From positions 1 through 64,000 of the IMG/VR virus record IMGVR_UViG_2852743531_000003: a stretch of DNA of 64,000 bases, one strand, 5' to 3'. Numbering within the stretch: position 1 is the stretch's first letter; each line of letters opens with the position of its first letter. This DNA is from a virus (taxonomy: Duplodnaviria > Caudoviricetes). Under the pieces are notes generated by a model. The model was not told where the DNA came from and ran no database searches. It worked only from the letters and a program-made list of their open reading frames with translations. A program made the position numbers and the translations under genes. Shown in pieces: positions 10,678 to 60,600 of this stretch.

Positions 10678-10696
10678 CCCTTCCGGAGATCCGCCC

Positions 10697-41934: not shown

Positions 41935-42477
41935 ATGATCGGCCACACTGCGCTCAGCCACACCGCGATTCGCTCGTTCGACGAAGCGGTCGTCGTCGCG
42001 GGTAGCCGTACCTTCAACGACGACCGCGTTTTCGCCGAACTTCTCGAGTCGTGGCTTGACAGGAACGTGCGCCCCGGCGCATCGGTGATCTTCATCTCGG
42101 GCAAGGCTCCCAGCGGTCCTGACGAGATGATCATCCGCTGGTGCCGTGCCCGTGGTCAGGCGTGGACCGAATATCCTGCGGACTGGGAGAACCTGGGCGC
42201 GCCGAACTCCTACATCAAGAAGAGCGCCGTGACGGGCAGACCCTACAACGCGCGCGCAGGCCATCAGCGAAACCGCGAGATGGCCCGCGTGGCCACACGC
42301 GTCGTCTGTTTCTGGGATGGCGTCTCGCCCGGCACCCGCAACATGATCGAGGAGGCCGAAGACCACCAGATCAAACCCTCCATCTTTCTGATCAACCGCG
42401 ATCCGGAGCAATGGAATGAGCACCGCAATGGACAGCCCACCCGGAAAAAGAAAGGAGACAGAGAAGTTCCTTCTTGA
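41935..42477 (+). CDS. SLOG-superfamily (YspA/DUF2493-like) protein
   Basis: VVVAGSRTF, ISGKAPSGPD, YPADW, AGHQRNREM and FWDGVSPGTRNMI. The start is uncertain (TTG 41866 is possible). Confidence 0.85.
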   Translation: MIGHTALSHTAIRSFDEAVVVAGSRTFNDDRVFAELLESWLDRNVRPGASVIFISGKAPSGPDEMIIRWCRARGQAWTEYPADWENLGAPNSYIKKSAVTGRPYNARAGHQRNREMARVATRVVCFWDGVSPGTRNMIEEAEDHQIKPSIFLINRDPEQWNEHRNGQPTRKKKGDREVPS

Positions 42478-43111
42478 GTATATCGGCAAGCTTATTCCCG
42501 GCTCTGACAGCAACGTCAGGATCTACCGGGCGCTCTTTGCCGGCATGGACGATGAGGCATTCCACGCCTTCATGGGCAGGCTCGAGCGCCGTGAAATCCG
42601 GCTTGCCATCGTGGCGCCCAACCTTTCGAAGGAGAAAGTCACCGTCGCCAACAACCTGGCGATCGCCGACGAGCTCGGCCACAATTTTTTCGAACGCATC
42701 TGGATCGACAACGGTAACGATGCCCCGCCCTATCTCTCGCCGGTCCGGTATCTGGTGTGCGATCTCACGCTGTGCCGCCAGGCGCAGCTGCTCGTGAAGA
42801 AGATCTCGATTCCCGAGGATAACCGCAGCGTCGACGATCTCACCGGCCAGCCTTCCGGCAAGTCGGAAGCGAGCAAGATTTCGTTTCCTGAAAACCAGGT
42901 GCTCGCCGCCTTCCATCTGGACAAGACCCTGCACGAGCTGATCACCCTGCGAGGTGGCGACACCCAGGGATTCAACGCCATGAACGAGAGCTTCGCCCGC
43001 ACGGGCGGCGCCTCGCAGAAGGCGATCGAACCGTTCCGCGGTGGCGTGAAGTCGACCCAGGCGCTGCGCGTCATGCTGCTGTCCATGCACCTCGATGCTG
43101 AGGGACTGTAA
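42416..43111 (+). CDS. Virion RNA polymerase beta subunit, C-terminal part (phiKZ gp149-like)
   Basis: RQAQLLVKKISIP, DDLTGQP, SKISFPE and ELITLRGGD mirror the beta C-terminal conserved region. Confidence 0.85.
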   Translation: MSTAMDSPPGKRKETEKFLLEYIGKLIPGSDSNVRIYRALFAGMDDEAFHAFMGRLERREIRLAIVAPNLSKEKVTVANNLAIADELGHNFFERIWIDNGNDAPPYLSPVRYLVCDLTLCRQAQLLVKKISIPEDNRSVDDLTGQPSGKSEASKISFPENQVLAAFHLDKTLHELITLRGGDTQGFNAMNESFARTGGASQKAIEPFRGGVKSTQALRVMLLSMHLDAEGL

Positions 43112-43148
43112 TGGCGCTCACCAGGGGACAGGAGGAGGGAATTGGGCC

Positions 43149-43685
43149 ATGTCTCTCACAAGCGACGAGTGGCGCGACACAGCGCTGATCTTTACGGAAA
43201 GCGTGGAATTTGTGCTGAACAACATCGCGGCAGGCAACGAGGAGCTGCATGAAAAGCTCACGGATTTCCTGATGTCGCTGATCCTCGCCGACAAGCCCTA
43301 TCTGCTCGCGAGCGCGAAGGGACTCGACCGGGCGGTGAATCTCGCCTTTGTGGATCCGCAGGTGTGCGACTTCATCCTCATGATCGTGTTCGTATTTTTT
43401 TCAAGATGGGGTGCATCGTTCAGCCGGTACATGCACCTTGTCGAATCGCTCGCGTTTGCCGTCGCGGGAGACGCCCCATTTTCCCCACCGGGCTCCCAGA
43501 CCACGCAGCGCCAGGTGCTCGTCGCAACACCCTCCGAAATTCACGAATCGCTGCCCGACCCGGCTCTCACCCAGGACCTGTTGCTGCAGAACAAGTGGCT
43601 CAGCGTGCTGCTGCTCATCCATCTTTTCGTTGGGGCGCCTCGCGCAAAGCGTCAGAAGGCCACCCGCAATGAAGTCCAGCCATGA
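43149..43685 (+). CDS. Hypothetical protein
   Basis: ATG 43149 after GGAGG. Helical and hydrophobic. Confidence 0.65.
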   Translation: MSLTSDEWRDTALIFTESVEFVLNNIAAGNEELHEKLTDFLMSLILADKPYLLASAKGLDRAVNLAFVDPQVCDFILMIVFVFFSRWGASFSRYMHLVESLAFAVAGDAPFSPPGSQTTQRQVLVATPSEIHESLPDPALTQDLLLQNKWLSVLLLIHLFVGAPRAKRQKATRNEVQP

Positions 43686-44418
43686 AAACGCGATGAAAGA
43701 TGGAACGAATTTTGCCACTGTCCTGATCTTCCTCGACTGCCTGCTCGATACCCGTCTGGGCACCCTCGCGCGCATGAGCGATACGCTCGCGTGTCGCGCG
43801 CTCTCAGCCAGCTATCACCAGCGCGAAGAAGATGTTTTTGAAGGCGTGGACACTGCGGAATTTCGCCAGATGTACCGGGCACGCGATGTCGAGACGCTCA
43901 AACGTTCGACGATCACCACGCTGACCACCCTGCTGGGTGACTTCTCCCGCACGCTCTCGCGGATCGTGGGCACCCGTCCATGGCTTGATGGGGTGCGCAT
44001 CCTCGTGAACACCTGGCCATACCGGCTCGATGCACCCACGCTCGACGCATTGCAGGGGGTCATTGCACTCTGGAGCGGTGGATCTTCGCCAGTTGAAATG
44101 GTCGACTACGCGCCCGGCCAGCTGACACCGGCGTTCGTGAAAGCGAACTTCGACATTCTCTTCATGTATGAATATGAAGAGTGGCTTCACATGCATGGCG
44201 AGGCCTTCAGCAAGACCTCGCTTGCGGACATCAACGTGATCGTTCCCGCGCTCTATTTCAACCACAGACCCGACGAGAAAACATTTGATGAACTGGTCCG
44301 TGACGGCGCCCATCCGTTTGCCGCCATCACGATGCTGACGTCCGGATTTGTCGGACTGGAACTGATCGACGTGAAGTACTTCAGTATCGCAGAGCCTGCC
44401 GGCATACCGGCGGCATAG
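43669..44418 (+). CDS. Conserved phiKZ-like protein (gp147-like; degenerate HAD-like N-terminus)
   Basis: LDCLLDTRLGT, VNTWPYRL and MYEYEEW motifs. Synteny near the gp149-like gene. Confidence 0.6.
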   Translation: MKSSHENAMKDGTNFATVLIFLDCLLDTRLGTLARMSDTLACRALSASYHQREEDVFEGVDTAEFRQMYRARDVETLKRSTITTLTTLLGDFSRTLSRIVGTRPWLDGVRILVNTWPYRLDAPTLDALQGVIALWSGGSSPVEMVDYAPGQLTPAFVKANFDILFMYEYEEWLHMHGEAFSKTSLADINVIVPALYFNHRPDEKTFDELVRDGAHPFAAITMLTSGFVGLELIDVKYFSIAEPAGIPAA

Positions 44419-44448
44419 TCCGCCTCCGCGGGGTGGCAGGAGGCGGAC
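44418..44448. terminator. Hairpin between convergent genes
   Basis: 10-bp inverted repeat GTCCGCCTCC / GGAGGCGGAC. No U-tract. Confidence 0.45.
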
Positions 44449-44487
44449 GCTGGTCATGCCTGCAGGGCGCCCTTCGGCTCGTCACAT

Positions 44488-44988
44488 TCACCCAGCAGTG
44501 CCCAAGCCGGCCATGAACGAGTCAACATTCATCTGCGCGGCTTCCATGTCCGTTTCCCCTGGCACGAAGACGGGTTCGGGCACATCACACGGCAGCATCG
44601 GAATCGCAGGGCGCAGTTCGCCTGAGTGCTGATCTGACTGCCCGCCCGGCCTCGGCGCAGCCTGCCCGATTCCGGGTGTACCGAGAATCTTTGCGATGAC
44701 GGCAGCAGCGGCAGCCTGGTTGGCCAGCGCAATGTTTTCCGACTTCAGACGCTTCCTGCCAAGCGCGACACGATCCATACCGTCGAGCGCGGCGAGTACA
44801 ACGTCCATCTCGCGCGGGGAGAGCTTGCTGAGGCTCTCCCCGCTGTTTCCCGCCATGGTCACGATGATTGCCTGACGCTGGCGCAATGTGTAATCGAGGA
44901 CTTTATCCTCATCGTCGGGCACCTCGAATACGGGCACGGCATGTTCTGGCCCGTCATCCTGATCCGCCCGCAAAACAGTACTGGACAT
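44488..44988 (-). CDS. Hypothetical protein
   Basis: ATG 44988 after GAGGA. LAALDGMDRVALGRKRLK motif and Pro-rich tail. Confidence 0.7.
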   Translation of the reverse strand: MSSTVLRADQDDGPEHAVPVFEVPDDEDKVLDYTLRQRQAIIVTMAGNSGESLSKLSPREMDVVLAALDGMDRVALGRKRLKSENIALANQAAAAAVIAKILGTPGIGQAAPRPGGQSDQHSGELRPAIPMLPCDVPEPVFVPGETDMEAAQMNVDSFMAGLGTAG

Positions 44989-45068
44989 GGCATTCCTCAC
45001 GAATTCAATCCTGGCGACTATCATAGAAATGAACGATTGCGCTAAAACCCGGGCGTATGAGGTACTCC

Positions 45069-45611
45069 ATGCAATCGTGGCGCTTTCGACTCTCCCACTG
45101 GTTTCGCAGCAAACGCACGGATCGGCTGGTCACCAGATTGATCCGCGAAGAACGGGCGATGTCCAGTCACGAGGCAGGCCGCGCGATGCTCGAAGTGCTA
45201 TGCCAGTGCCTGGACATCGAGAGGTTCCAGCGCTTCGGTCTGTCCGATTCGTTCGGCTTCGATATCCGGCCGTTCTACGCAACGATTGGCCAGTACTGCG
45301 ACGAACTGAAGGCCATCAATGCGAGACTCGCGACAGGCACGCCACTGCCGCCGCAATGGGCGATGCTGGATGGCAACGCCACCACCCTTGACCGGTTCTT
45401 CGAATCAAAGGAGGGCTTCTACATCAATGTCCCGGAGCACCTTGCCCGGTTCAAAAACGAAATCCTGATTTTATGCACGCTGATGCGTGAGAGCGATGGA
45501 GCCGAGACCGGCATTCATCAATACAACCTGCGCATGCTCACTCGGGTATTCGTCAATCTCAGACGGCTCGTCATCGTACTGATCGGAATGAGTCACGAAA
45601 TCGGGCGCTGA
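45069..45611 (+). CDS. Hypothetical protein
   Basis: ATG after GAGG. 180 aa. Confidence 0.7.
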   Translation: MQSWRFRLSHWFRSKRTDRLVTRLIREERAMSSHEAGRAMLEVLCQCLDIERFQRFGLSDSFGFDIRPFYATIGQYCDELKAINARLATGTPLPPQWAMLDGNATTLDRFFESKEGFYINVPEHLARFKNEILILCTLMRESDGAETGIHQYNLRMLTRVFVNLRRLVIVLIGMSHEIGR

Positions 45612-45710
45612 ACGAGACCGCAAGCCGGACAATCTGCGCAGGCGCGCCCGTCGCCCATCACAAGCCGCTTCACACGTTTTCTCACAAGTTTTTCTGCAAG
45701 GAATGCGATC

Positions 45711-46517
45711 ATGGCTTCGCAACAGCTCGGTCACATCCTCAAATCCAGCGACAAGGACGTCCACCGCACCGCCGGTCCCAATGGAATTCTGGCCAATCTT
45801 TACCGCAAGATGCTGGTCGAACTCAACGTTGGTCCAGGGCGTTTCAGCGATTTTCTGCGCGAGTACGTGACCGACCCGCGACACGGCATTGCGCAGACCC
45901 AGAAGGATCTCACCACTGCACGTGGCAACCTGATGAAGGAGCTGTCGCGCTCAGGAATGACGTTCAAGGTCTTCCTCAAAGGCATGCGCTTTCTGCAGGT
46001 CAGGAAGTTCGACTTCTGCGTCAGGTGCCACTACTACACCGGCAGCCCATCGATCCATCAAGCCCTGATCGACTTCGGTAGCAGAAGGGATCATCAGGTG
46101 GTTTCGCCCAACGGCATCCTCGCTGATCTCTTTCGCCAGATGCTGGTCGATCTCGACATCGGCCCCGGGCGGTTCAGCGATCTGCTCGACGACTATGTCA
46201 ACGATCCACGAAACGGCGTTCCCCGGACACCGAAAGACTTCACCACTGCGCGTGGCAATCTGACCAAGGAGCTTTCCCGGGACGGGATGACGTTCAAGGT
46301 CTTCCTCAAGGGCCTGCGTTTTCTGCAGGTCATAAAAGTCGAGTTCTCGGTGAGATGCCACTATTACAGTGGCCGCGTCTCGATTCACGGAACCACCGTC
46401 GAATTCGCAAAACGCCCCGAGCTCCTTGATGAATCTGGCGAGCCCGTTCGTAACGAGGAAGAAACGGCGTCACTGCTGTCCAATGCCGTGCCGCAATCCC
46501 TGATTGCGCTTGCCTGA
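45711..46517 (+). CDS. Protein made of two tandem 110-aa domains
   Basis: PNGILA..GPGRFSD..TTARGNL.KELSR.GMTFKVFLKG.RFLQV..RCHYY occurs twice, 330 nt apart. Confidence 0.85.
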   Translation: MASQQLGHILKSSDKDVHRTAGPNGILANLYRKMLVELNVGPGRFSDFLREYVTDPRHGIAQTQKDLTTARGNLMKELSRSGMTFKVFLKGMRFLQVRKFDFCVRCHYYTGSPSIHQALIDFGSRRDHQVVSPNGILADLFRQMLVDLDIGPGRFSDLLDDYVNDPRNGVPRTPKDFTTARGNLTKELSRDGMTFKVFLKGLRFLQVIKVEFSVRCHYYSGRVSIHGTTVEFAKRPELLDESGEPVRNEEETASLLSNAVPQSLIALA

Positions 46518-46613
46518 GATACGGCGTAAGGCGTCCTGATAGCTACCCGGGGCTGGCGTCACCAGCCAGAAAGGACAGTTCACAAGCGACACAATCCCGT
46601 CAGAGATCGAGTC

Positions 46614-47168
46614 ATGACTACGGCATTCCATGAAACCGCCCTGTCGCCATCCATCACCTTTGCTGGCATGAAACCCGAGGACGATGGCATCACCCATATC
46701 AACATTTCGACAAGCGGACAAACAGCACTCGGAAGAAAGCTTGCCCATTACAGCGTCACCCCGTTCATTCATCCGGTCTATGGACCTTTTCGCTCGATGG
46801 AGGGCTTCTGGTATTACATCAAGTGCGAAAGACCTGATGACGAGTTTCGCAACCTGTGCGGCAGCCGCGCAAAGGCGCACGCGAAAACGAAAAGGATGGT
46901 CTGGAGAGAGCACTTCAGCCAGATCATCAACGAAGCGAACTTTTACCGCATCGTGCAGAACGATGATATTCGCGAGGCCATGATCGCCTCAACGCTGCCG
47001 TTCGGCTATTACTACCTGCATGGGCCACAGCAGCTTCAGATCCACAGCCCGATTTCCGGGTGGCTCTGTGATGGCCTGGAGGAAATCCGCCGCCACCTGA
47101 AGGCGAGCTTTCCCTGGCCGCCGGCGCCCGTCGTGAAGTTCGACGTAACCCAGCATTGGCAGGAGTAA
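46614..47168 (+). CDS. NADAR-like protein (T4 gp30.3-related pattern)
   Basis: DGITHINI...LGRKLAHY...PF....GPFRSMEGFW...G..AK resembles the NADAR LSNF..PF..G.F.S.E core. Confidence 0.5.
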   Translation: MTTAFHETALSPSITFAGMKPEDDGITHINISTSGQTALGRKLAHYSVTPFIHPVYGPFRSMEGFWYYIKCERPDDEFRNLCGSRAKAHAKTKRMVWREHFSQIINEANFYRIVQNDDIREAMIASTLPFGYYYLHGPQQLQIHSPISGWLCDGLEEIRRHLKASFPWPPAPVVKFDVTQHWQE

Positions 47169-47185
47169 CGCAGCAGGAGTCAAAC

Positions 47186-48493
47186 ATGCCATCCGGCGCA
47201 CTGGCCAATCCAGGCTTCCTGACGGGTCCCGGAGACAACCTCGCGGCTGTCGACGTCTACAGCGGTACTGCAGCTGGCATCATCAACTCGATCCAGAGCC
47301 TTGCGGCAAAATACGACGTCAACCTGATCGGCATGCTGCGTGCAGGCGCCGCGGCTGCGCAGTTGCTACCGCTGGTGCAAGGCGTAGCCAACGGTCAGCT
47401 GCTCATGAACCCGCAGAACACGATCGCGCGCATTCTCACGGCGTCGAACACTCTTGTGCAGGCCGCTTCAGGCGGCACGCTCAGTGGCACCGTCAACAGC
47501 GCCTTTACTGCACTCTCCCCTTCGATCCAGAGCAGCATCGGAGCGTCGGCCCAGGTGGTCGGCAGCGTGCAGACGAGCGTGGGCGGCGTCATGAGCAGCA
47601 TCACGAACGGTGCGATCGGCGACATCCAGAGCCTGGGCAAGCTCATCAACAGTTTCTCCGGATCCTCGTCGTTCATGATGATCGACAACCAGGCGCTCGG
47701 CGGTGTCGCCGCAGGGGTCATCAACCAGTGTGCGAGTCTTGGCGTCAGCGGAGTCTTCCAGCCGCTCGTAAGCCAGATCACGAGTCCGACCGTACTGTCG
47801 GCGATCGTCAAACAGACGCTGCCCAGTCTCGTCCGCACGGGCGACCTCGCCAGTCTCCAGAGCCTCGTGGCGGTGGCGGGGGCCGCCGGTATTGCCGCAG
47901 TGAATCCCGGCGTGATCTCGCAGTTCGCGCAGACCTACGTCCGCACGGCATCGGGCAATGTCACCCAGGCTACGCCAGCGCTCGATTCGACGACGTACAC
48001 GCAGATGATGTCCGTCTTCGATACCGCCGCGCCCTCGTGGAACGTCTGCACACGCTCGACCCCTAGTGCGGACGACAATACCATCGACATCTCGTCGATC
48101 ATTGGCGGCACAGACAACTTCAACAGCGTGCTCGCAGCAGGCGTTGCCAGCAGCAGCGATCTCGGGGAACAGTTATACGGCCTCGCCGCGGCATGCCCCG
48201 TCACCAATGTCGATTTGCTGCTCAAGAACACGTACCCGGGCTCCTACATCGATCCGGCACTGCGCAGCACCGGAACGCCGGTCGATCCCTCACAGGCCGG
48301 CATTTCCGCCGGGGTCAACGCGGCGACGAGCACGACAGCCGTCCAGGTGACATCCGGCATCGCAGTCACTCAATCGCTTCCCAACGACCCGGTCTGTAGC
48401 CAGCCCAATGCGGGTACGATCGGTCTCCTCTCATCCAACTCAGCAACCCAGGTCACCATGACCAATACCCAGATCAACTGGCTCACTGGCTGA
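47186..48493 (+). CDS. Probable virion structural protein
   Basis: ATG after AGGAG. Ser/Thr/Ala/Gly-rich with N-terminal DNLAAVDVY. Convergent on the tail genes. Confidence 0.55.
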   Translation: MPSGALANPGFLTGPGDNLAAVDVYSGTAAGIINSIQSLAAKYDVNLIGMLRAGAAAAQLLPLVQGVANGQLLMNPQNTIARILTASNTLVQAASGGTLSGTVNSAFTALSPSIQSSIGASAQVVGSVQTSVGGVMSSITNGAIGDIQSLGKLINSFSGSSSFMMIDNQALGGVAAGVINQCASLGVSGVFQPLVSQITSPTVLSAIVKQTLPSLVRTGDLASLQSLVAVAGAAGIAAVNPGVISQFAQTYVRTASGNVTQATPALDSTTYTQMMSVFDTAAPSWNVCTRSTPSADDNTIDISSIIGGTDNFNSVLAAGVASSSDLGEQLYGLAAACPVTNVDLLLKNTYPGSYIDPALRSTGTPVDPSQAGISAGVNAATSTTAVQVTSGIAVTQSLPNDPVCSQPNAGTIGLLSSNSATQVTMTNTQINWLTG

Positions 48494-48786
48494 AACCGAT
48501 TCACCGGCCTGACAAGCGACAGGTCATGCACGTGCGGCCCTGCCGTCGGAACCAGCCTTCCTACTTGAGGTTGATGCGCCCAGAACCCCGGCGTGCGCTT
48601 GATGCGGCTGCTCTCCGAACCGCAGCAAGCGCATCAGACAGACGCAAGCCGGACTGCGTTGTTGCCGTCATGTGTTCCCTGATCAATTCTGTCTGGAAGC
48701 GACAGATGGTAGCAGAGAGGTACAATATTAGCCTTCACGGAGGCCGCCGGTCGAGCCGTCTAGTTGAGCGAACTGTCACATAAAAC

Positions 48787-50157
48787 ATGCTAATCGATCT
48801 AAAAAAATTCCCGAAGTATAAGAGAACTGACACAAGCGCCAAACTCGATACGTTGCGCCGACTGATCCAAGAAAATGTTTTGGCATCAAAGTATATGGAT
48901 GCCCCGGCCGCGCGCCGGCTTATTGGAACGGCAATCAACTCTTTTAAAGAATTGCTAATTAAGGACCAGCAGGGCGCTAATCCAAATACCGTGCCGGACG
49001 CGAAACTCGTGCTCGCGTTTTTGTTCGACCTGACCTGCAATGCCGAATATTTGCACGACCGGCTAACCAATGATCGATGGATTTACTGCGACGCTCATGT
49101 TGAAGGTGAATCGCGGCAGCATGAGGCGTATTTTTCATTCCTTAAACAATGCCCGGACTGCTGTCTTTCGATGGGTCTTGATGCTAGAATTGAAAAAGCA
49201 CAGCACAAACCGACCAGTCATCACATTGGGGAAATCACCTCTACCATAACGGTACTTCTACTGACGTTGCTTGCGAAGGCCACGGATGAAAATATTCAGC
49301 TCGCACCCATTGCGAAACAATCTCACGATGTGGACGCAGTTGTATTCAACGAAGATCTGTTGGTGCTCCTAGAGGTCAAGTCCTCACCTCTCGTGACTTT
49401 CCCGGTTGCCGCCAAGCTAGACGGATCGCTCACGAAGGAAGGCGAAGATGGACCGATTGAAGAAGCGCGACACGCTTTAGTGAACGTGGATTTTCGTAAG
49501 TATCCTTTGAGTCTATTTATTCCCCATCGTCAATTACATATTCCTCTGCCACACGTCGACGAAAAAGACTGGCCCTACGTTCCCCTCACCGACTGGATAA
49601 GTGTGCCGGAGAATTTTCTCGTGCTGTTTGAAGCATGGAAAGAGATATTCGAGGCTTACAGTGTTCCCAAAACCCAGCGTACCGGCTCACAGATATCACT
49701 TGGCTACATCGCTAATGGTTGGGGTGATGAGATCGACTCCAATAAAACGAAACCCGGTCTTGGGCGTACAGACGACGTTAAGAAAGGAACCTACCAGCTC
49801 ATCAAATACGGTGCCTACTATGCACTGCAAACGCCGGATCTGACAATTAAGTCGGCGCTCGTCGCCAATTTGGATCCCCTCTTTATGCATGCGGCCTACC
49901 TTGAGAAACTCCTCGATATTCGCTGGGGCAAAAATGTCGACTTTCGTGATCTGCCAGAATTCGAGGAGTTTGCTATCAAGCGGGACCGCCTTAAATGGCT
50001 CTATGAGGGGATACTAACTTTCAACAACCCTCATATCAATGACGAGACGCTGCGGAAATTATTTAATTTTGATCGACTAGGCGAGTCGTTGCGTTACGGT
50101 CGTTTAAACACATTAATTGAGGAATGGATGACCATTCCCGTAGGTGGAAAAAATTAA
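48787..50157 (+). CDS. Putative type II restriction endonuclease (PD-(D/E)xK) with Cys cluster
   Basis: HDVDAVV...LLEVKSS catalytic pattern and Cys residues WIYC...CPDCC. Lower GC. Two nt upstream of a DNA methyltransferase. Confidence 0.7.
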   Translation: MLIDLKKFPKYKRTDTSAKLDTLRRLIQENVLASKYMDAPAARRLIGTAINSFKELLIKDQQGANPNTVPDAKLVLAFLFDLTCNAEYLHDRLTNDRWIYCDAHVEGESRQHEAYFSFLKQCPDCCLSMGLDARIEKAQHKPTSHHIGEITSTITVLLLTLLAKATDENIQLAPIAKQSHDVDAVVFNEDLLVLLEVKSSPLVTFPVAAKLDGSLTKEGEDGPIEEARHALVNVDFRKYPLSLFIPHRQLHIPLPHVDEKDWPYVPLTDWISVPENFLVLFEAWKEIFEAYSVPKTQRTGSQISLGYIANGWGDEIDSNKTKPGLGRTDDVKKGTYQLIKYGAYYALQTPDLTIKSALVANLDPLFMHAAYLEKLLDIRWGKNVDFRDLPEFEEFAIKRDRLKWLYEGILTFNNPHINDETLRKLFNFDRLGESLRYGRLNTLIEEWMTIPVGGKN

Positions 50158-50159
50158 TT

Positions 50160-51944
50160 ATGCCTGTTCTTAATGCATTAGCAATTCTGCGGAGCAACGT
50201 TGAGCAAGAAACCGATTTTTCACTAGCGCTTGAGGAAGCCAAAGCTCTATGCGGCGACGATTGCAAACCCGTCAAGAATGCGGACGCTCTCAGGCGGTCT
50301 CTGCCTGCTGAGCTTCGTGTGGTTGCAGAGAACGCACTTCTTGCGAACAACTTAAGCGCAGTAGCGGTCCGCATTAACAACGTTACATCTGCAACTCTGG
50401 CCGCCTTCGCTCTACGGACTGCATTTTTTCAAGAAATTGCGTTTTGGAGCAGCACTACGACGCTCCCGCAGTTTCCGCATCTACCAGCGACCGAATTGCC
50501 CGGTGGTCGCGCTATGGTTACCCTGTCCCTGTATTATGTCCTGGAGATCGAAGGGGTCTCCGCGGTGCAAGGCGATCTGCTCCGAGGACGACTTGAGTGC
50601 CTGTATGAGATTTTGCTATCTGAGGTCACGAATCCCGTGCCGAAATCGCATCGAATTGGTGGTGCGAAGCGGACGACACTGACACTCACACACGATCTCC
50701 ACATCTATAAGGCGAAATTTTTCCCCCGAATGATTCGAGCGCTTCTAAATATTTATGCGCCGGAGCATGCCCGCGTGGTAGATCCTTTTTGCGGTAGCGG
50801 CACCGCATTGCTTGAAGCGAGCTTACTTGGGCTCGAGTCATACGGCATAGATTTCGACCCCATCTGCGAGCTCATCTCATCCTCGAAAGTCACGCCGTTT
50901 TTGAGTGCGACTGCGCTGAAGCAGGACCTTCATTTAGCACAAAAAGCGTTCGAAACGATAACGCCAACCGCTGACGATCATTCGGCGTTTCCCGAAGAGC
51001 TAGGAATAAAGCTTAAGAACCGCGATCGGAAATTCGGGACCCGCGAGTTCGAGGAAGTAACCAGCGATGCTGTGCTCTTGAGGGGGCTTTACCGCTCGAT
51101 CAAAAACGTGTTGTCGACGGCAATCGTACCGGTGCTCGCAAGCGATGCCCTTACGAAAAAAGTGCGCTACCGCTATGTGGGTATCGGCAACGGGGCTTAC
51201 ACCGTTGAGGTCCTTCGATTACGAGCAGTCGACCGTTTCCGCGAAAAGGCAATGCGCTGCGTCGAGCTATGTGATGTATTCGCCGAACTCTCAGGGATTT
51301 TGCCGTGGAAGCTGGGCAAGACCAGCGCACGAAGAGGGTCGGCCGGCGACTTCTCCACTTGGGGCTTGAAAAAGGCGGTAGACATAGTCATAACCAGCCC
51401 ACCGTATTTGCCAGCGTCTTCTGGACGTGAACACTATACGTCGTCACGTGCGCTGTCCTTTTTTGCAGTCGACGCCCCAGCGATGGCTTCGAAGGCGCCT
51501 CCCTCTTCAACGGAATGTCCCAGCGAAGAATGGTTCGATGCGCCCGAGATTGCCGCCTTAATCCAGTACCTAGGTGCCGATCAAGGAATTGGGAATCTGC
51601 AGACTGATGCAATGCGCTCGATCTGGAAGCTCAAGCCCACTATCGAGTATCTGCACCTGATCAAAGATTTTTTCTCGGCGGCGAAGACCGCCCTTAAAGG
51701 AGATGGCCTGTTGCTGTTAGTTGTTGCGACGCAGCACGTCTTCTACTCTCACAAAAGAAAAGAGATTGAGCACGTGGTGAATTGCGGCCAACTCTACTCG
51801 GCACTGGCGATTTCATCTGGATTTAGACTGGAGCGCGAAATCAAACTCCAACTTACGAAACACGCAGCAAGTATGGCTCGGCCTCAGGCAAAGGACGAAT
51901 ACTTCGAAAGCGTGCTGGTGTTCAGACAACAGTCGTTACAGTGA
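50160..51944 (+). CDS. Amino-DNA methyltransferase, probably N4-cytosine, motif I before motif IV
   Basis: THDLHIYKAKFFP (motif X), VVDPFCGSGT (motif I), ITSPPY (motif IV), with a long intervening target-recognition region. Confidence 0.88.
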   Translation: MPVLNALAILRSNVEQETDFSLALEEAKALCGDDCKPVKNADALRRSLPAELRVVAENALLANNLSAVAVRINNVTSATLAAFALRTAFFQEIAFWSSTTTLPQFPHLPATELPGGRAMVTLSLYYVLEIEGVSAVQGDLLRGRLECLYEILLSEVTNPVPKSHRIGGAKRTTLTLTHDLHIYKAKFFPRMIRALLNIYAPEHARVVDPFCGSGTALLEASLLGLESYGIDFDPICELISSSKVTPFLSATALKQDLHLAQKAFETITPTADDHSAFPEELGIKLKNRDRKFGTREFEEVTSDAVLLRGLYRSIKNVLSTAIVPVLASDALTKKVRYRYVGIGNGAYTVEVLRLRAVDRFREKAMRCVELCDVFAELSGILPWKLGKTSARRGSAGDFSTWGLKKAVDIVITSPPYLPASSGREHYTSSRALSFFAVDAPAMASKAPPSSTECPSEEWFDAPEIAALIQYLGADQGIGNLQTDAMRSIWKLKPTIEYLHLIKDFFSAAKTALKGDGLLLLVVATQHVFYSHKRKEIEHVVNCGQLYSALAISSGFRLEREIKLQLTKHAASMARPQAKDEYFESVLVFRQQSLQ

Positions 51945-52261
51945 GCGAAGAACATGCGATACAGGAGCAGAATCGTGCCCGGGTCGGGTACGTAGCGCCC
52001 CCAGCGACGCTGTGGCTCGCGTCTGCGCTGGGCGCGCCCGCGCTGCTCAGCATTCACCACTACATTTCCTCCTTCGAAGCGCTCTGGTAAGCGAACACGC
52101 CTTTCGAGCCCGGATGGCGGATTTTGTTTTTCCCTGTTCAGAAGCCGGACCTGGTTGGTATTCGGAGAGTTGCGGCCGGACCAATAGGTCCGTCGCAACG
52201 ACTCTGATGCCCTACCATTGGGGGCTATGTGTTTTTCTTTTTTCCGTAGGGAATGCTCTTT

Positions 52262-54532
52262 TCAGATATTCGAATCAATACCCTTGAAAAATCCCGAGAT
52301 CAAACGCGCCGGCATCAGGTCTCCCGCGAAGCTCGCCCAGTGCGCGGGTGAAAGCCAGGACTTCCACTGCGCCATCTGCATCGTCAGATTGAGTTTCAGC
52401 TTTCTGAAAACATAGATCTGGTCCGCAAGACCAAGACCACCCAGCACGGCCATATAGTCGGTGAAGGGATTGTCGCCATCGAAGATATTGTCGAGTGACG
52501 TTGCAACGTTCGATACCGTGTCCACCACGGTTCCAAGCGCCGCTCCCGCGGCCGAGACTGCGGCTGCCACCGGCAGCGCCGCGGCAGCCGCACCCGCCCC
52601 ACCCGCGACCGCCCCCACCGGACCCGCGATAGCACCACCTCCCACGGCACCGGCAACCGCAGCCGCGCCTTCTGTCACGGCGAACCCGAGACTCGCCCCC
52701 GTCTGCGCGGCCGCCGTGCTCAAGCCCTGGCTGATCGGCAGATACACCAGCGACGAAAGATCGGCAACCGTAAACGTTACGTCGATCGCCAGTGCCCGCC
52801 CATCGTTATTGAATCCGAGATTGCCCGTGCCTCGTGTCACGGAGAGACTGTCGATGATGCCGAGCCGTATCTGGCAGCGACCACGGTCGTACAGTTCGCA
52901 GATGAATGGTGCCGTATAGGACTGCCGGCCGGTGGCAAGTGGCAACGCGCCTGCGATCAGCATCGCGAGCGGGATGTAGAGGTTGATGAGCTGCGAGACC
53001 GGATTGCCGTAGGGGCTTACGAGGTTGACGGTATAGCTCGTGCGGGCGAGTGATGCCGAGGCCGACTGCCAGTGCCGCGGGATATCGACGAAGGCCGAGC
53101 CGCCCAGCGCGGCCAGGCCCGATAGCCCCATGCCGCCGGCGATACCGGACGCAAAGTCGAGTGCATCGTTCACCGCACTGCCGACGAGTCCCAGCACGCC
53201 ACCACTCGCGAGATTGCCACCAGCCGCATCGAAGCGCGTCGTGCGTGCCTGGCTCGACATGCTGTTGATCTTGTTTGCGATCTCGGAATCCGCCGTCTGG
53301 TTCTGGAATGAATCCGTGACCGCCCCGGTCGCGTTCACGCGGAAACTGACGAACGATCCGCCATCGTTGAGCTCCGCGTTCAGGAAATCGAAAAACCCGG
53401 CGTTCTCGCTCTGGGACTGTGAAAAGTTCTCCGTGACCGAATCCAGCGTCGCGTTATCCTGCGTCTGGGTAACGGCTGTTGACGCGCCTGATGTGTCGGC
53501 GCTGGTTGTGCCGGTGGAGTCTGCTGGCGCGCTCGTGCCTGGCGCACTGTCATCGCCGCCGCCGGCCGGCTTCACCTGCGCATTGGCGACCGTGCCAAAC
53601 CACTGCGAGATATAGTCGCTGAATGAGCGTGCGCCGGTATCGGCGAGCTTGTTGCCAGGACTGAAGAGGTTCTGGATGACCGAGGCGAGATTCTGGCTCG
53701 TAAGCGCACCGGTATCCATCGCAGCCTGATACATCGCAATCTGCTTCGCCTCCAGCCGCCGTGCACGCGTCGACATCTTGTAGACGTCGATTCCGCCTCC
53801 ATTGAAAAAGATGTCCGGCCACGCCGCCTGCATTTGTGCAATACCTGCTGCATCAAACTGGTACTGATCGCCAAGCCCCGGAATGTTCGTCACGTCCGCG
53901 CCAACCACCGCGTCGCCGGCGCGCGGAATGACCCCGAGGTTCACGGCAATCTGGTTGACGATCGTCTGCACGATCTGCCAGTACACAGGCATCGTGCGCT
54001 TCAGGTAATAGAACTTCGAGGAGGGCTTGTTCATGAGGAAATTCAGGCCCACGCCGGCCAGATGAAACGCGAGCAGCCTCCAGCTCATGAGCGACACGAC
54101 GAACCCGGCTGCCTTGCCCAGCGTGTAGAAGAAGGTCGTGCCGCGCCCGGTTCTTGCGAGCACTCCTGCTCCACTGTTATAAAAGCTCGTAAAGAACTGC
54201 GTGAGTGAATTGAACTGGGGCACGCCAAAGCTCATGTGGATGACCTGGGCGTTGTCGTCGATCGCCTCGCTGTAGTAGATGCCAAGACCGTTGCTGCCAT
54301 TCAGTCGCGAAGGTGCCTTGGGATCGGCATGACGCGTGAATTGCGGCGGTGGATTGATGGCGATGTTGCCGCCCGGGCGCGTGTCGACATACTTGAGCGC
54401 CGCGCTCGTGAAAAAACGGTTCGAGGCATCGGGGCTGCCCGTTGCAAAACTGGATGAAGGCACGAGAAACGACTGCCTCACCCAGCTGACGTCACTGCCC
54501 TGGGTATCGAGTGTGTTGAGATTGGATATCAT
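52262..54532 (-). CDS. Virion structural (tail/baseplate) protein, phiKZ gp182-like
   Basis: INPPPQFTRHADP, YYSEAIDD, FGVPQFNSL, SPYGN, SYTAPF and GIIDSLSVTRG motifs. Directly follows the gp181-like gene. Confidence 0.75.
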   Translation of the reverse strand: MISNLNTLDTQGSDVSWVRQSFLVPSSSFATGSPDASNRFFTSAALKYVDTRPGGNIAINPPPQFTRHADPKAPSRLNGSNGLGIYYSEAIDDNAQVIHMSFGVPQFNSLTQFFTSFYNSGAGVLARTGRGTTFFYTLGKAAGFVVSLMSWRLLAFHLAGVGLNFLMNKPSSKFYYLKRTMPVYWQIVQTIVNQIAVNLGVIPRAGDAVVGADVTNIPGLGDQYQFDAAGIAQMQAAWPDIFFNGGGIDVYKMSTRARRLEAKQIAMYQAAMDTGALTSQNLASVIQNLFSPGNKLADTGARSFSDYISQWFGTVANAQVKPAGGGDDSAPGTSAPADSTGTTSADTSGASTAVTQTQDNATLDSVTENFSQSQSENAGFFDFLNAELNDGGSFVSFRVNATGAVTDSFQNQTADSEIANKINSMSSQARTTRFDAAGGNLASGGVLGLVGSAVNDALDFASGIAGGMGLSGLAALGGSAFVDIPRHWQSASASLARTSYTVNLVSPYGNPVSQLINLYIPLAMLIAGALPLATGRQSYTAPFICELYDRGRCQIRLGIIDSLSVTRGTGNLGFNNDGRALAIDVTFTVADLSSLVYLPISQGLSTAAAQTGASLGFAVTEGAAAVAGAVGGGAIAGPVGAVAGGAGAAAAALPVAAAVSAAGAALGTVVDTVSNVATSLDNIFDGDNPFTDYMAVLGGLGLADQIYVFRKLKLNLTMQMAQWKSWLSPAHWASFAGDLMPARLISGFFKGIDSNI

Positions 54533-54604
54533 GGAGGAGTCCTATGTTTCATGATGTGCCCGGAGGAGTGGCATGCTTCCCCGGGCGGCCGTCAGACCAT
54601 GCCG

Positions 54605-57600
54605 TCAGGCCATCTTCGCCATGGAGACGGGAGCCGTTGGCATCGGTCGCGACGTTGAAGGCAGCGACTGGACCGTGCTGGCTGCCGCCGCATTGGCACC
54701 CGCCGCCAGGTTTCCGGCACCGGAGCGCGCACCCTGCTTCACCGCCTGCTGCATCAGGTCGTACATGGCCTTCAGAACGTCCAGTGCCTGTTCGTGAACC
54801 TTGAGCGACCTGTCCAGCGTTTCTCCCACCCCACCCAGCGCGTCCATGTGCTCGTCATGCTGGGCCTGCTGGATCGTCATGAGGGATTTCGGGCCCTGGT
54901 CGATCAGCTTGACGGACCCCGGCCCGAAACCAAACTGCGCGAACGGCGCGGCTGGCGAACCGCCCGCGAAGGGGATTTTCGAGGGCACATTGCTGATCGC
55001 CCCAGCCAACCTGGTCCGCGCAACCGAGGCGTCAGCCAGGGTCACCGCCGCGGCAACTGCTGGCTGCCTGGGTACGACGCTCAGAGGGTCACCCTGCGAG
55101 GTGTTCGTTACCGGGATCATGGCCCCCGCCGTCGCGGATTTCGACGCGGTGGCTGGACCAGCAGCGGAAGCGGCGGTGGCACTTCCCGCACCGCCGACTC
55201 CAGTCATGCCCGGCGTTGTTGGGGCGATTGCCGCCGCGCCCGTCGCAGGACTGGGCGCTTTCGCAGATGCCGGCGAAGCCGGTTTCGCCGGTCCGGCGTC
55301 CGCCGGAGCGTTAGTTGCATTTGCACCTACCCCCGAGGCACCCGGCGCCGGCGCCTTGATGGCGGTGTCCGCAACGCCCGCGCCCTTGCCGGTTTTAACT
55401 GGCGCGGATGCAACGTCAACCGCGCCTGTCGTCACCCCTGTCTGCTTCAGGCCGAGCTGGACCCGCCGGCCGATCTCCGCATAGACCCCGGCCACCGAGC
55501 GATGGGAACCATCCCTGTTGAAGAAGATCGACCGATTCGCGGCCGCGGGCCCTGGCATGAGCGCTACAGCGTCCGTGCCGGGATCGGCCTTGAGAAGCTG
55601 CTTCGCACCACCGGGACCCAGAAAGTGCGCGAGATAGACATCCGTCGGTGTGATGGTAGCCTTCACGCCCTTGAGCGCCGCGACGTTTTCCTTGATGAAC
55701 TCGGCACCCATGAGGGCGCTCGCGCGCGGATCGGTCTGTGGCGTGTTGGGCGGAATGTCGTACTTCGACCCGTACTTCCTGAGCATCGTCTGCCAGGTGC
55801 TGTTGATGAACTGGAACAGACCCGACGCGCTGCTCGTGCCCGCCTTCGCGGACGGATTGAACGCGGACTCGATCGCACCGATCGCTGCGAGCAGGATCGG
55901 ATCGACGCCCACCATCGACGCGGCCTTGCCGATCAGATCCTTGACGGCGCTCCAGCCGCGGCCGATCGGCAGCGGCAACTGGCCAATCCTGCCGCCCAGT
56001 GCCTGCAAGCCCGTGCGGATCGCACCGCCTGCAGCACCCGCCACACCGGCTACGGTTTCCTTCACGCCGGAAACAACCTTCCCCGCCATAGTTCCAACCG
56101 CGGTGCCCGCGCGCTTCGCGACATCCCATGCCCTGCTGGCACCACCTGCGGCAGCACTCTCCACCCCCGAGATCAGGTTGCCCGCCACATCCTTGACGCT
56201 GTCCCACATGCCAGCCATGAGGCTCCCAACCGTTCCCACGCCCGACTGGATCCTGTCGGTCAGCAGGTCGGTCCAGCCCTTGCCCTGATCCCTGGCTGGT
56301 GTCGACGCGGGTGTTACGTCCCGTGCCGTTTGCAATCGCTGCGCGGCGTCGGCTTTCTTCTTCTGGTCGGCTGCTGCCTTGCCCGCTTCGGTTGCAACAC
56401 TACTTGCGGCCGCGGCACCCACCTTCAGCGCGGCCGCCTTTCCCGTCGAAGGTTGATCCGCGCGCATGCTGTCGATCGCAGCCTGCGCGGCGGCAACGTA
56501 GGTGGCCACCTCCTTTGGCCCCGCATCGAGCGTCAGGCTACGGTGAAGCGTGAGAATCGATCCATGAAATGGCGAGCGCATTTCCTTGTATGGACCAGTG
56601 GGCCACGAAACCGCCTTCAGATATTGCTGCCGGTCCTCCTTCCTGCGCAGCCGCTCGTCGACCTCAGGAAGACTGATGTTCTGCCCCATCGATTTCAGAA
56701 CCGTCAGGTGCGTGCAGAAAACCGGCTTGAAACGACGCAGATACCAGGTCGCGAAGTTCGCCACTTCGCCCCTGTTGGCCGGGTCGATGTCAAACGGAGC
56801 GACGATCTCTCTGAAATTGATGGATTTGCCACTGACGTCCGCGCGGCCGTTCCGGTAGTACACACCCTTCATCAGGGTGTCCTCGAGAGTAAGGATTGCC
56901 TTGACGCTGTCGTGGTCATCGGGCAGGAAGCCATACTGGGCGATGCGCACACTGGCGAGCGCCCCAGGCTTCTTCTCGAGCAGTCGCCTGATACCGCGAT
57001 ATGCCAGATAGCCCGCCCCCGCGACGGCAGCAGCACCGAGCACCACGGGCAGAGACAGAAAGCTGCCCACCGCGGCAAGCCCACCACCAATCACTTCGCC
57101 CGCAGTGGCGAGTCCTCCTGCCAATCCTCCCATCCCGGCAAGCGATCCACCCAGGCCGAGTGTCCCGGTCGCGCCGGCGGCGGCAAGACCTTCGCCGGCA
57201 AGCGCCTCGGCGCCCCCCGTCAGTGCGGTGCGCCCCAGCACGCTCCCAATGCCCCGGCCCAGCAGCTTCCTGCCACCACCAGCGAGCGCTCCCAGACCAC
57301 GCCCCGCCCGCTTCACACCCTTCATCGCTCCCTTTAGCAGCCTGCCGCCTCCCCATCTGCCAAGCTTGCGTTCCAGCCAGTTTTGCGCGTCGCCCATCAG
57401 ACCGCTGCCGTCCTTCCCATCCTCACCTTCACCATCGCGCTTGCCGCGCCCCCTGAGCCGGCCAAGCAGGCTGCCGAGCCCGGCAAGGAGCCCCTTGCTG
57501 CCGCCTGCCTCTCCGGTCGCAGCGCCACCGGGCTTTTCCCTGTCAGCAAGACGGCGTTTACGCTCGAGGTCTTCCCATGAGTTGGTGATAACGCCGGTGC

Positions 57601-60600
57601 CCTCCTGATCGCCGACGAGACGCTTGCGTGGCTTTGGCAGACGCTCGAACAGGATGTCGCGGATTTCGGTCAGGCGCTGCGTGATGGTCTTCGAACCGGC
57701 AAAGACAATGCCGTCCGGTCCCATCATCCTGTTGAACCAATCCGAAAGCCCCCTGAATGGCGAAAGCGCGAGATCCTTGAGAACGCCAGCCCCCTTTCTG
57801 ATCGCCTTGAAATAGCCCTTTACCGGCGCCATGACCAACGCCGCGAGCTTCATGAGCGGCGTGCGGATGGGATGCCCCTGTGCATCGACCAGGCCGCGCG
57901 CGAGGTCCTCTTTCCTCAGTACGACCTTCGGATAGCTCCGGTCGCTATAGTCGACTACCGGCCCGTCGATCATGCCGGGGCGCAGGATGACCTTGTCTTC
58001 GTGCAACTGTGAGCGGTAGGCGCCCGCGCGCATCATGATGGCCAGCAACCTCGGCTCGGTCTCGCCCTTGACGTAGATGTCGACGGGCGGGTCGAGATAT
58101 TCGAGACCACGTCTGGCAAGCGCAATGCCCTTTGTGACGGTCTTCGCCGCCATCGAGAAGACGTCGCCCGTCATGAACTCAGCAGCGCGGCCAATGAGCT
58201 TGCGGCCCGCGCCAAAAGCCGAGATGAGTTTTGCCTTCAACCGCCCCTTCGCATAGGCGCGTTTGATGTCTTTCGATTGCAGCACGACATTGTCATTGTC
58301 GGCGCTGTCAATCACATCGCCCTTGATGTCCTTGTACGAACGGATGACGGCACCGGTCGCCCTGTCGCGGTAGTGGCCAAGTCGCATTTTCCAGGCAAGC
58401 AGTACCGGCTCGCTGGATTCGGGCAGGTAGACATCCTTCAGGCTCGCGACGTAATCGAGCCCCTTCTGGCCGCCCTCCTTCGCGAGATCAACGCCACCGC
58501 GAATCATGCGCGCGCCGAGATGTTCGGACTTCGTCATCCAGTCCCAGCCCGTGCGCACAGCCGATGTCGCTGCCTGCCGCGCGCCCCGCAGCGTGTCGAC
58601 ACCCGCGCTGGCAAGATCGCGCACGGTCCAGTCCGAAAAGCGCTTGCCCCAGCGCGAACCTTTCAGCCTCTCACCGAGTTCGCCAAGCCTGCCTGCCGCA
58701 CCGCTTGCTGCACGACCGGCGGCGCCCTTGATGCGACCGCCGATTCCGGAGACATCCGGTACGTGAAACAGCCCCTCCTCGATCTTTTTCTGGATGACAA
58801 GGAGCGTCTCGTAGATTTTCGCGACCAATGGCTTGCTGCTGTGCTCCCTGAATTGCTCCCTGAGCACATCAATGACGGCGCCCATCGGTCCATGCACCGC
58901 GCCCGCGGTATCGGCAGGCGTGAAGCGCCGCCCCGCCCCGAACGCCGGAACCGCGCCAGGCTGCAACGACCTTCCCCACTTCTGCTGCAGGAAGCGTTCA
59001 ACATCGTGCGCGGTACTGCCATGCCGCTGCACAGGCATGGGCTCTTCCTGCAGCGCCATGCTCGCCGTTTGCACCTGCGCGGACGGCTGGATGCTGGCGA
59101 TGCCTGTGACACCTGCGGCAGGAGCGATGGCTGGAACCACGCGGCGCGCGCCACCCGTGAACGGTTGGGAAACGACAACGCCGGCACGCCGTGTCTTCGT
59201 GGTTGCCTTCGCGCGGTGCGGCGGCACGCGCGCGAATGTCCTGATGGGGCGCGGAGCATGACGACGCGCGGCCATCGGCGCGACACCTGAAATCCCTGCA
59301 GAGCCCGGGGTTCCCCGCAGATCGCCTGCGCCCGGCTCAACGCCCGGCGTGTATTCTCCGGACAGGTACCAGTCAATCAGCCGGTTCTGGTCGATCATGC
59401 CGTCCTTAACGATACCGGCGTCTTCGGCGAACTCGAGCATGCCGGCATTGATGAGGCTCTGGACCATCTCGCGCGGATCGGCAATGCCCCCACCCAGATA
59501 GGCGAAGCGCGCATGAAACGCCTTCTGCCTCTCCTCCCGATCCTGCGAGGCATAGTTCTGGAACAGCTGGGCAAACGTGCCCGCGTGCTTCGCCTCGTCG
59601 CCGGCATAGCTCCACAGATCGCTGTAACGTTTGAGCGACCCGGTACGGTTGGCAAAGTTGTCGCGCACAAGGCGCCGGATCAACATCTGCCGCTGCTCCG
59701 CGCTCAGCTTTACGCCACTGTTTTTTTCCAGATCATCGATGAGTGAGCCGGCGTGCTCCTGGACGTGTTGCCGGTCGCGCGGCTGCACAATCGACTCGAA
59801 TGCGCGTTTGAAGGTCAGTGAACGCTCGCGGAACCGGTTGCCTGACCAGTCGAACGATGTAAGCTCGACTTTCGTGTCTCCCGTGCGCAGGATCTGCAAC
59901 TCGCGATAGATCCGCGCGAGAAACCCGGGGATGATTTCGGTGATCGACTTTCTGACGAGATGCGTAAAAGGTGCGGGCTCCTGCAGGTTGCGCAGGTTGT
60001 CGACGTGGACGCCCGTCTGCACCGCGTTCGCCCTGATGATCTGGTTCTTCAGCCACTGTACGGCCGAGCCCACCACCGGCGTGTCGTTGAGCCTGTCCGA
60101 ATACGCGAACTCGGTCAGATGCTGGGGCACGCTCTGCGCGAAGTGACCGGCCGTGTGGCCGTGCCGCTCAATGAAGTCGCCAACGCGCGTGCCCTTGAGC
60201 GTGCGGCCAATGCGTGACCCGAGCACAGAAGCGAGACCCTGGGCCGCAAGACCGCCCGCCATGTCCCCGGCCATCTCCGCCTTCGATGGCCCGATTCCGT
60301 CCATCCCCGACATGCCGGCGCCCACGTCTGCCATGCCAAGACCCATCTGTGCGCTACCGACGAGGTTGCGCAGCGATGAGGTAAGTGACGACCTGATCTG
60401 TCCGGTCAGTGCCCGCATGAAGTTGCTGCGCTGACCGAGAAACCAACTGCCCGCATTGCCCATGAACTTGTTGCGCAACAGCGTCGGCCAGTCCTCGCGC
60501 ATCTTCACCTTGAGCAGATCGGGCAGCGCGGTGTTCTTCTGGATGTTTTCGAGCAGCTCACGCGTGGCCACGCCCTGTTTTCTCTGCTCCATCAGCGCAT

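Follow-up and report, generated by a model that had tools for sequence, protein, structure and literature searches.

A probable Type II restriction-modification pair of bacterial origin between the virion genes of a phiKZ-like phage

Why would a phage that belongs to a group known for escaping restriction carry a restriction-modification (R-M) system of its own? Nucleus-forming phages owe their immunity to restriction to a protein shell, and carriage of a complete R-M pair by such a phage reverses the usual roles. The question is raised by a 3,768-nt cassette at positions 48494–52261 of IMG/VR virus record IMGVR_UViG_2852743531_000003, within a stretch comprising the first 64 kb of that record (64,000 nt; hereafter, the window). 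The whole record spans 140,992 bp, bears the label 'provirus' and is estimated to be 53% complete; coordinates below refer to the window unless given as record positions. The cassette holds a nuclease gene, R, and a methyltransferase gene, M. That these form a genuine Type II R-M pair, gained through horizontal transfer by a phage of the Chimalliviridae, is, in our assessment, very probable. The fuller reading, in which an intact two-gene Type II R-M operon of bacterial origin was inserted between convergent virion genes of a phiKZ-like phage and serves the role proposed below, we consider likely. The cassette and the genes at its edges are as follows.

47156–48493, + strand: left flank gene, U, 445 aa; phrog_5028 (E 9e-29); outside the cassette, left edge of the insertion
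48494–48786, + strand: non-coding DNA upstream of R, 293 nt
48787–50157, + strand: R, predicted Type II restriction endonuclease, 456 aa; PADLOC REase_II PDLC03413
50160–51944, + strand: M, predicted S-adenosylmethionine (SAM)-dependent amino-methyltransferase, 594 aa; motif I and SPPY
51945–52261, + strand: non-coding DNA from the stop codon of M to the stop codon of the convergent phage gene, 317 nt
52262–54532, − strand: right flank gene, 756 aa; phrog_3181 (E 1.6e-205); right edge of the insertion

Both cassette genes are uninterrupted. The second open reading frame (ORF) was called as 50124–51944 (+, 606 aa), and alignment with homologues places its start at the ATG at 50160. The TAA stop codon of R (50155–50157) is followed by 'tt' and then by this ATG, leaving a gap of 2 nt between the genes. 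Full-length homologues exist for R (E 1e-116 to 1e-158) and for M (E 1e-89 to 1e-140), which shows that both are real genes and not chance ORFs. GC content, calculated over 500-nt segments, is 0.46–0.56 across 48750–52249, against 0.61 at 48000–48749 and 0.63–0.66 at 52250–53249. The GC content of third codon positions (GC3) is 0.516 in R and 0.570 in M, compared with a mean of 0.705 (sd 0.082) in the 94 other ORFs of at least 150 aa in the 141-kb record. No more than two ORFs of note lie between the phage genes, and Pfam finds no ATPase domain in R or M; signs of a Type I, III or IIG system (ATPase/helicase, specificity subunit, fused R-M polypeptide) are absent between the flanking genes. 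The neighbourhood encodes virion proteins, among them a 2233-aa protein with a phrog_3201 match and a transglycosylase part, and four tail-fibre-like paralogues at 24.7–32 kb. The original prediction had described a PD-(D/E)xK nuclease with a Cys cluster 2 nt ahead of an SPPY methyltransferase, both uninterrupted, lower in GC than their flanks and set in a tail region; ORF calls, motifs, spacing, both measures of composition and the neighbouring genes bear it out in every detail.

R aligns with PADLOC REase_II profile PDLC03413 at E 2.5e-138, with residues 7–451 covering positions 3–448 of 455. An alignment of 26 family members contains 90 invariant columns. D183, E196 and K198 are invariant and form a D-x12-E-x-K nuclease motif; C101, C122, C125, H140, H145 and H146 are likewise invariant, and C126 is kept in at least 90% of members. 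The Cys/His cluster is probably metal-binding. A database search returned 164 homologues, nearly all named 'hypothetical protein', the best apart from R itself having 54% identity over 96–97% of the length. R has no sequence match in Pfam, NCBIfam or the PDB (the last searched to E 1). Foldseek finds nothing in the PDB that resembles its AlphaFold model (predicted local distance difference test score, pLDDT, 84.3) with an E value of 0.001 or less, and matches in the ESM Atlas are limited to unnamed clusters. An exhaustive structural comparison gave Z scores of up to 7.3, middling by the tool's own scale, in a list made up mostly of PD-(D/E)xK nucleases and restriction enzymes (Z 5–7.3). The PADLOC match, the invariant D...ExK residues and these fold neighbours together rule against the concern, attached to the original prediction, that the first ORF is not a nuclease.

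Eleven of the 50 best structural neighbours belong to the CCGG/CCNGG family (Bse634I, Cfr10I, NgoMIV, SgrAI, PfoI, AgeI, BsaWI, Kpn2I, PspGI, EcoRII and Ecl18kI; Z 4.7–7.3, 145–211 residues aligned). These enzymes have the PD-(D/E)xK core in common with R, but they show no sequence similarity to it and lack the Cys/His cluster of its family, and we do not claim membership. In these enzymes the second acidic residue also typically occupies another position; the R family has the classical D-x12-E-x-K arrangement. As judged from the model, the structural neighbours back the fold class only and not any recognition site.

M matches Pfam N6_N4_Mtase (E 2.3e-10; 41.2 bits against a cutoff of 26.7) and UPF0020 (E 2e-07), both limited to the motif I region, and PADLOC MTase_II PDLC03322 (E 2.2e-20). 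Motif I, DPFCGSGT, occupies residues 208–215 and motif IV, SPPY, residues 413–416; D208-P209, G212-S213-G214-T215 and S413-P414-P415-Y416 are invariant in a 26-member alignment. The predicted structure (pLDDT 84.7) comprises an N-terminal alpha/beta domain (residues ~1–170), a Rossmann core and a helical insert (~240–385) of ~145 residues between motifs I and IV, a candidate target-recognition domain. The order of these parts agrees with the 'alpha' arrangement known from DNA amino-methyltransferases. The target is probably N4 of cytosine, because the tetrapeptide is SPPY and because the alternative partner of the R family, described next, modifies cytosine at C5. A serine in the SPP(Y/F) tetrapeptide is linked with N4-methylcytosine.

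How the two families are arranged in bacteria bears on what they do. A scan of one genome per species yielded 22 bacterial loci with an R homologue, from at least nine phyla. The M family lies directly downstream of R on the same strand at nine of these, overlapping it or at most ~30 nt away, and R always comes first. At 12 others the partner is a C5 cytosine DNA methyltransferase (PF00145), upstream of R at 11 and downstream at one; at the remaining locus no methyltransferase was seen beside R. Alternation of two unrelated methyltransferase families at the side of one nuclease family is expected if either provides the DNA protection that the nuclease requires, and it makes a DNA role for M far more likely. 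In a maximum-likelihood tree the R of the window groups with M-partnered R genes, mostly from Pseudomonadota (support 85/97), and the partner label changes three times on the tree against a mean of 7.5 when labels are shuffled.

The bacterial pairs of the PDLC03413 family (loci L006, L008, L010, L011 and L012, and a Burkholderia locus) resemble the window pair in gene families, R-then-M order, tight spacing and lack of a controller gene, with full-length identities of 45–54% for R and 40–44% for M. The window pair differs from them in its carrier, a lytic-type nucleus-forming jumbo phage and not a chromosome, and in the long branch of its R. On the Burkholderia chromosome the pair (P0036 and P0144) is 49% identical to that of the window in R and 42% in M; by these sequence comparisons, the R-M family occurs in a genus infected by relatives of the phage, and the divergence is too great for this copy to have been the donor. 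A helix-turn-helix (HTH) domain was found in one of 76 small ORFs near eight bacterial R-then-M loci (HTH_3, at L023). Pfam detects no HTH controller gene among three small ORFs in the flanks of the window cassette, and no match for ORFs 48526–48783 (85 aa), 52012–52287 (+) and 51884–52198 (−). The nuclease-first order and the lack of a visible controller, which had been raised as a puzzle of self-cutting, are thus confirmed and are normal for this R-M family in bacteria. The HTH_3 ORF at L023 (4158–4472, +) is controller-like and lies ~530 nt upstream of a divergent R homologue (33% identity).

What kind of phage carries the pair? Outside the window, the record encodes chimallin (PF25677, 73 bits against a cutoff of 27; phrog_4795, 2.3e-68), a PhuZ tubulin (phrog_4733, 3.1e-77) and a divergent family B DNA polymerase. 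It also encodes an RNA polymerase (RNAP) beta subunit (phrog_2986, 4e-193), there are Rpb1/Rpb2 domain matches, and further RNAP subunits lie outside the window. The 756-aa right flank gene has tblastn matches in 294 phage records; the best deposited relative is Burkholderia phage FLC9 (48% aa identity in this gene), followed by Ralstonia and Xanthomonas jumbo phages. By gene content, the carrier is a nucleus-forming phiKZ-like phage (Chimalliviridae) of a high-GC proteobacterial host. The chimallin, PhuZ and split RNA polymerases uphold the earlier assignment to the phiKZ-like jumbo phages, which had been made from the window letters.

The relatives of this phage reveal an empty site. The two flanking genes are convergent and lie 42 nt apart in FLC9, 67 nt apart in FLC1-1B and 43–66 nt apart in seven IMG/VR relatives, so that the site is empty in all nine relatives with neighbouring flanks, compared with a distance of 3,768 nt in the window. 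U is identifiable as gp44 of FLC9 (28% identity, E 4e-28) and gp46 of FLC1-1B (25%), and is 48–77% identical across five IMG/VR relatives. The search for an empty site, proposed with the original prediction, thus supports insertion. Judged by GC and GC3, the empty sites and the bacterial homologues, the cassette is horizontally acquired and of bacterial origin. No integrase or transposase was found at the cassette, and no direct or inverted repeats bound it; the longest direct repeat across its ends measures 16 nt (81%). Aligned directly with each other, the cassette ends score 20–21 at best, against a shuffle mean of 20.3 (sd 2.3), giving no sign of a target duplication. A megablast search of window positions 46000–55000 against 50,697 phage records, a set that may not include the window's own record, found no match.

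The closest relative (L030, whose 756-aa gene has 95% aa and 82% nt identity) is rearranged exactly at the two gene ends that bound the cassette. Its 756-aa gene is followed by 1.5 kb of unique DNA (L030:10272–11780), with a 434-aa ORF that has no family match, and then by homologues of window 32.7–38.6 kb. Its U homologue lies 16.5 kb away, beside homologues of window 11.8–13.1 kb (U side, L041:1–1624). The junction is thus a site of change in the lineage, and, with R and M missing from the whole record of this relative, the acquisition postdates the split between the two. The window segments involved in the rearrangement are 11.8–13.1, 32.7–38.6 and 46.7–54.9 kb.

Two public runs from two studies, each with contigs totalling ~8.4 Mb, hold the region, with phage depths of 114 and 56. 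In each run a single 96,257-bp contig (Logan assembly) spans window 42000–58000 at uniform depth and without a single difference; since the record may itself derive from either run, the two give no independent evidence of occurrence.

How could an R-M pair serve such a phage? We propose that M, with SAM, would transfer a methyl group to an exocyclic amino group within a short DNA site, likeliest N4 of cytosine, and that R, as a Mg-dependent PD-(D/E)xK enzyme, would cut the same site when it is unmethylated. Both proteins would be made in the cytoplasm, where R would destroy unmethylated DNA that enters infected or persistently infected cells, for example plasmids or the DNA of rival phages. 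Restriction enzymes are kept out both by the vesicle of early infection and by the chimallin shell, according to the review PMC13282480. The phage DNA would be safe behind first the vesicle and then the shell, and also by methylation if M is imported, whereas in a carrier cell methylation by M would, as is usual for R-M systems, guard the host DNA. Exposed to R would be shell-less rival phages, plasmids and, unless marked by M, the host chromosome. With the phage genome enclosed, the nuclease could be carried without risk to self whether M is imported or not, and no controller would be needed. Given an active pair, we put the chance that its role is to restrict competing DNA at about even. An extension of this scheme, to which we give only a modest chance, is that the protein nucleus itself acts as the antidote of the R-M system: the nuclease, encoded by a genome beyond its reach, would police the carrier cell against rival phages and plasmids in cultures where the phage persists, and M would mainly keep the carrier chromosome intact. 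If true, a virulent-type phage would be running a defence system for its host without lysogeny.

Several observations count against the reading set out so far; the fold of M, discussed below, is one of them. The name 'restriction enzyme' of PDLC03413 is an annotation and not the outcome of an assay. The R of the window sits on a branch of 1.18, compared with a median of 0.27, which could reflect relaxed constraint. R and M are missing from the whole 138,880-bp record of the closest relative, and the pair may therefore be a transient passenger. Signals for expression are also sparse, and no RNA dataset is listed among the public holders of the region. An intergenic motif, TATATCAC(C/T), lies 22–84 nt upstream of at least seven genes of the phage, chimallin included; examples of TATATCAC sites are at record positions 77375, 101562, 113388, 122768, 128482 and 132896 (+) and 101557 (−). 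The 7-mer ATATCAC of this motif occurs eight times in intergenic DNA against 0.6 expected, and TATATCAC is a candidate phage promoter element. It is absent from the 293-nt stretch upstream of R (48494–48786). The sole promoter-like site before R is weak and sigma-70-like (48699–48726); the region has five such sites where 2.8 are expected, a non-significant excess, and host RNA polymerase may never reach the phage DNA. Finally, counts in the 137-kb backbone show no clear avoidance of any 6-bp palindrome (lowest z −2.8).

R and M may instead be transcribed by read-through from the co-oriented virion operon at 45057–48493. Other signals in the cassette are at background level: a hairpin at 48594–48633 folds no better than shuffled sequences (z −1.1), a terminator-like hairpin at 52202–52225 is at chance level (six sites against 5.1 expected; folding z 0), and Rfam gives no match. 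Among 4-mers of the backbone, CTAG alone stands out as avoided (z −6.7). Avoidance of CTAG is common in bacteria, and k-mer avoidance gives no clue to the recognition site.

Could the pair then be a selfish passenger, that is, a mobile addiction-type R-M pair that brings the phage no benefit, is poorly or not at all expressed and is on its way to being lost? The foreign GC and GC3, the lack of the phage-type promoter motif before R and the long R branch would all fit, as would the absence of R and M from the whole records of five relatives, namely the closest and four others. Rarity points the same way: the accessible text of Oliveira et al. (2014; PMC4176335) describes R-M systems as 'nearly absent' from non-temperate phages, with nine systems in 831 phage genomes and an 8-fold higher density in prophages. 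Against a passenger in decay stand two uninterrupted genes that keep all family-invariant residues, the lack of a transposase, integrase or target duplication marking a recent hop, and a sequence that has 0 differences between two runs of two studies. We regard this explanation as having a small chance of being right.

A second possibility is that the pair is an addiction module of a phage kept as a plasmid. Outside the window, at record 137257–139451 (−), genes for a ParB-like protein (339 aa; phrog_4715, 3.5e-16) and for ParA (400 aa; phrog_164, 1.8e-55) lie side by side. The best phage matches of ParA are the plasmid prophages PY54, phiKO2 and POI1126, and none of the best 15 of 184 matching records is from the Chimalliviridae. 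On this explanation ParA and ParB would maintain a plasmid-like phage genome and the R-M pair would kill cells that lose it (post-segregational killing). Presence of the phage in two bacterial-genome-sized assemblies and the label 'provirus' agree with it. FLC9, FLC1-1B and three IMG/VR relatives lack the ParA/ParB pair, which is 98% identical in the closest relative. ParA is also 90% identical in a relative that is complete, with direct terminal repeats (G003), whose backbone genes are just 58–59% identical; this pattern suggests exchange or strong constraint. That complete genome has no R-M pair, which argues against a tight link between ParA and R-M. Moreover, no plasmid replication gene or integrase was found in the 69 ORFs scanned of the record, itself 53% complete, and post-segregational killing requires methylated host DNA. 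We give the addiction module a slim chance.

The original prediction had left the choice between a weapon and a defence or addiction module of a persisting element, and ParA/ParB together with the two assemblies lean towards persistence. At ~8.4 Mb, each assembly is as large as a single bacterial genome, in keeping with a phage that is associated as an episome or in a carrier state. Two preprints (10.1101/2024.12.31.630880; 10.1101/2025.05.06.652010), in their accessible parts, describe Chimalliviridae as common in bacterial isolate assemblies, as persistent infections; the accessible part of one of them reports no ParA in its set. The assemblies, ParA/ParB and the preprints lend plausibility to a lasting association with the host, and hence to a defence role for the carrier cell.

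A third explanation turns the nuclease on the host. R would shred the host chromosome for nucleotides and shut-off, and imported M would protect phage DNA only. With its genome shielded, the phage is safe from a nuclease in the cytoplasm, and the host probably shares the high GC content of the phage (GC 0.59–0.62), in which case a GC-rich site would be frequent. Against this, M in the cytoplasm would shield host DNA too, selective import of M without R has no support, and the relatives manage without the pair. Such a takeover weapon is improbable.

The fourth explanation is that this is not an R-M system: M would modify tRNA or rRNA, like Trm11 or TrmN, and the nuclease encoded by the first ORF would have another role. 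The closest solved folds of the M model are indeed the tRNA N2-methylguanosine (m2G) methyltransferases TrmN, aTrm11 and Trm14 (Z 17.4–17.6, 244–260 residues), aligned from residue 4–5 and thus with the N-terminal domain included, whereas other methyltransferases cover just residues 178–591 (Z 15–17). Shared ancestry of the N-terminal domain of M with that of the tRNA enzymes is compatible with this model-based alignment. The best PDB sequence matches are again tRNA m2G methyltransferases (E 7e-6 to 9e-5), in the motif I region only, and NCBIfam gives weak matches to Trm11 and Trm14 models. These scores are far under the cutoffs (TIGR01177, Trm11, 38.8 bits against 316.55; Trm14 models, 17–19 bits against 280–480), and no THUMP or other Pfam domain was found on residues 1–175, even at E 10. 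Trm11, TrmN and Trm14 have the N-terminal domain, the Rossmann core and an xPPY motif, as does M, and M has a UPF0020 match. M differs in its ~145-residue helical insert, in a serine in place of D/N in the catalytic tetrapeptide and in its genomic tie to a restriction nuclease. PADLOC and PHROG label its nearest families as DNA methyltransferases, and in bacteria the M gene takes the place of a C5 DNA methyltransferase beside the same nuclease family. This pairing makes DNA far more likely than RNA as the substrate of M. An RNA substrate had been named as a result that would overturn the original prediction; it is the weakest point, since solved tRNA enzymes match best, but the bacterial pairing outweighs it, and an RNA-modifying M is very improbable.

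Lastly, an assembly artefact joining bacterial R-M DNA to phage DNA, at which the GC step at both cassette ends might hint and about which the original prediction had warned, has a negligible chance, as a 96,257-bp contig of uniform depth from an independent assembler crosses both junctions in each of the two runs and rules out a chimera.

If a Type II R-M pair in a nucleus-forming phage is accepted as the most probable account, how unusual is it? The R-M machinery is of an ordinary, known kind; the carrier is the unusual part. P1 with EcoP1I and the chlorella viruses are examples of R-M in phages and viruses. Other phage-borne systems resemble the present one in being complete pairs in a virus with a presumed use against competing DNA, but their carriers are mostly temperate or plasmid-like and, in the accessible parts of the literature, none is a nucleus-forming phage. 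The accessible literature likewise contains no report of R-M encoded by a nucleus-forming phage, and supplementary tables may list phage-borne R-M. In 50,697 phage records, tblastn found no match to M and one weak match to R, in a 14-kb Vibrio element (26% identity). A pattern-based search of IMG/VR contigs with the protein and the 26-sequence alignment, which could miss distant copies, returned no R relatives.

The cassette illustrates neatly how genes pass from the defence islands of bacteria to a virulent-type jumbo phage. It also offers two natural tests. One concerns which cytoplasmic proteins enter the phage nucleus, as a methyl mark on virion DNA would mean import of M; the other concerns how such phages stay associated with bacterial cultures over long periods. 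The R family, for which there is no Pfam model or solved structure and no named prototype was seen, could yield a new enzyme specificity from a cloned copy.

Some further features of the record were noted. A bacterial-looking island at record 71635–76136 (GC 0.59–0.66) encodes an IlvD/Edd-type dehydratase, a flavin adenine dinucleotide (FAD)-dependent oxidoreductase and a major facilitator superfamily (MFS) transporter, and may be behind the 'provirus' label. The public contig starts 2,338 nt to the left of window position 1, so that the 'provirus' cut lies inside continuous sequence. At record 92633–97466, a second low-GC island (0.45–0.49) comes after a VgrG-like spike gene (Phage_GPD, T6SS_Vgr, DUF2345), and the three ORFs of the island (450, 175 and 119 aa) have no Pfam, PHROG or PADLOC match; the layout is that of a spike with cargo and immunity genes, and the public contig of both runs stops inside the VgrG gene. 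Two methyltransferase-like genes of normal phage GC lie in the window, at 10361–11581 (+; N6_Mtase, 4e-6) and at 19507–20979 (+; MTS domain, PHROG 'DNA methyltransferase' families, PADLOC mad2, 6e-21). The phage may mark its own DNA in other ways too.

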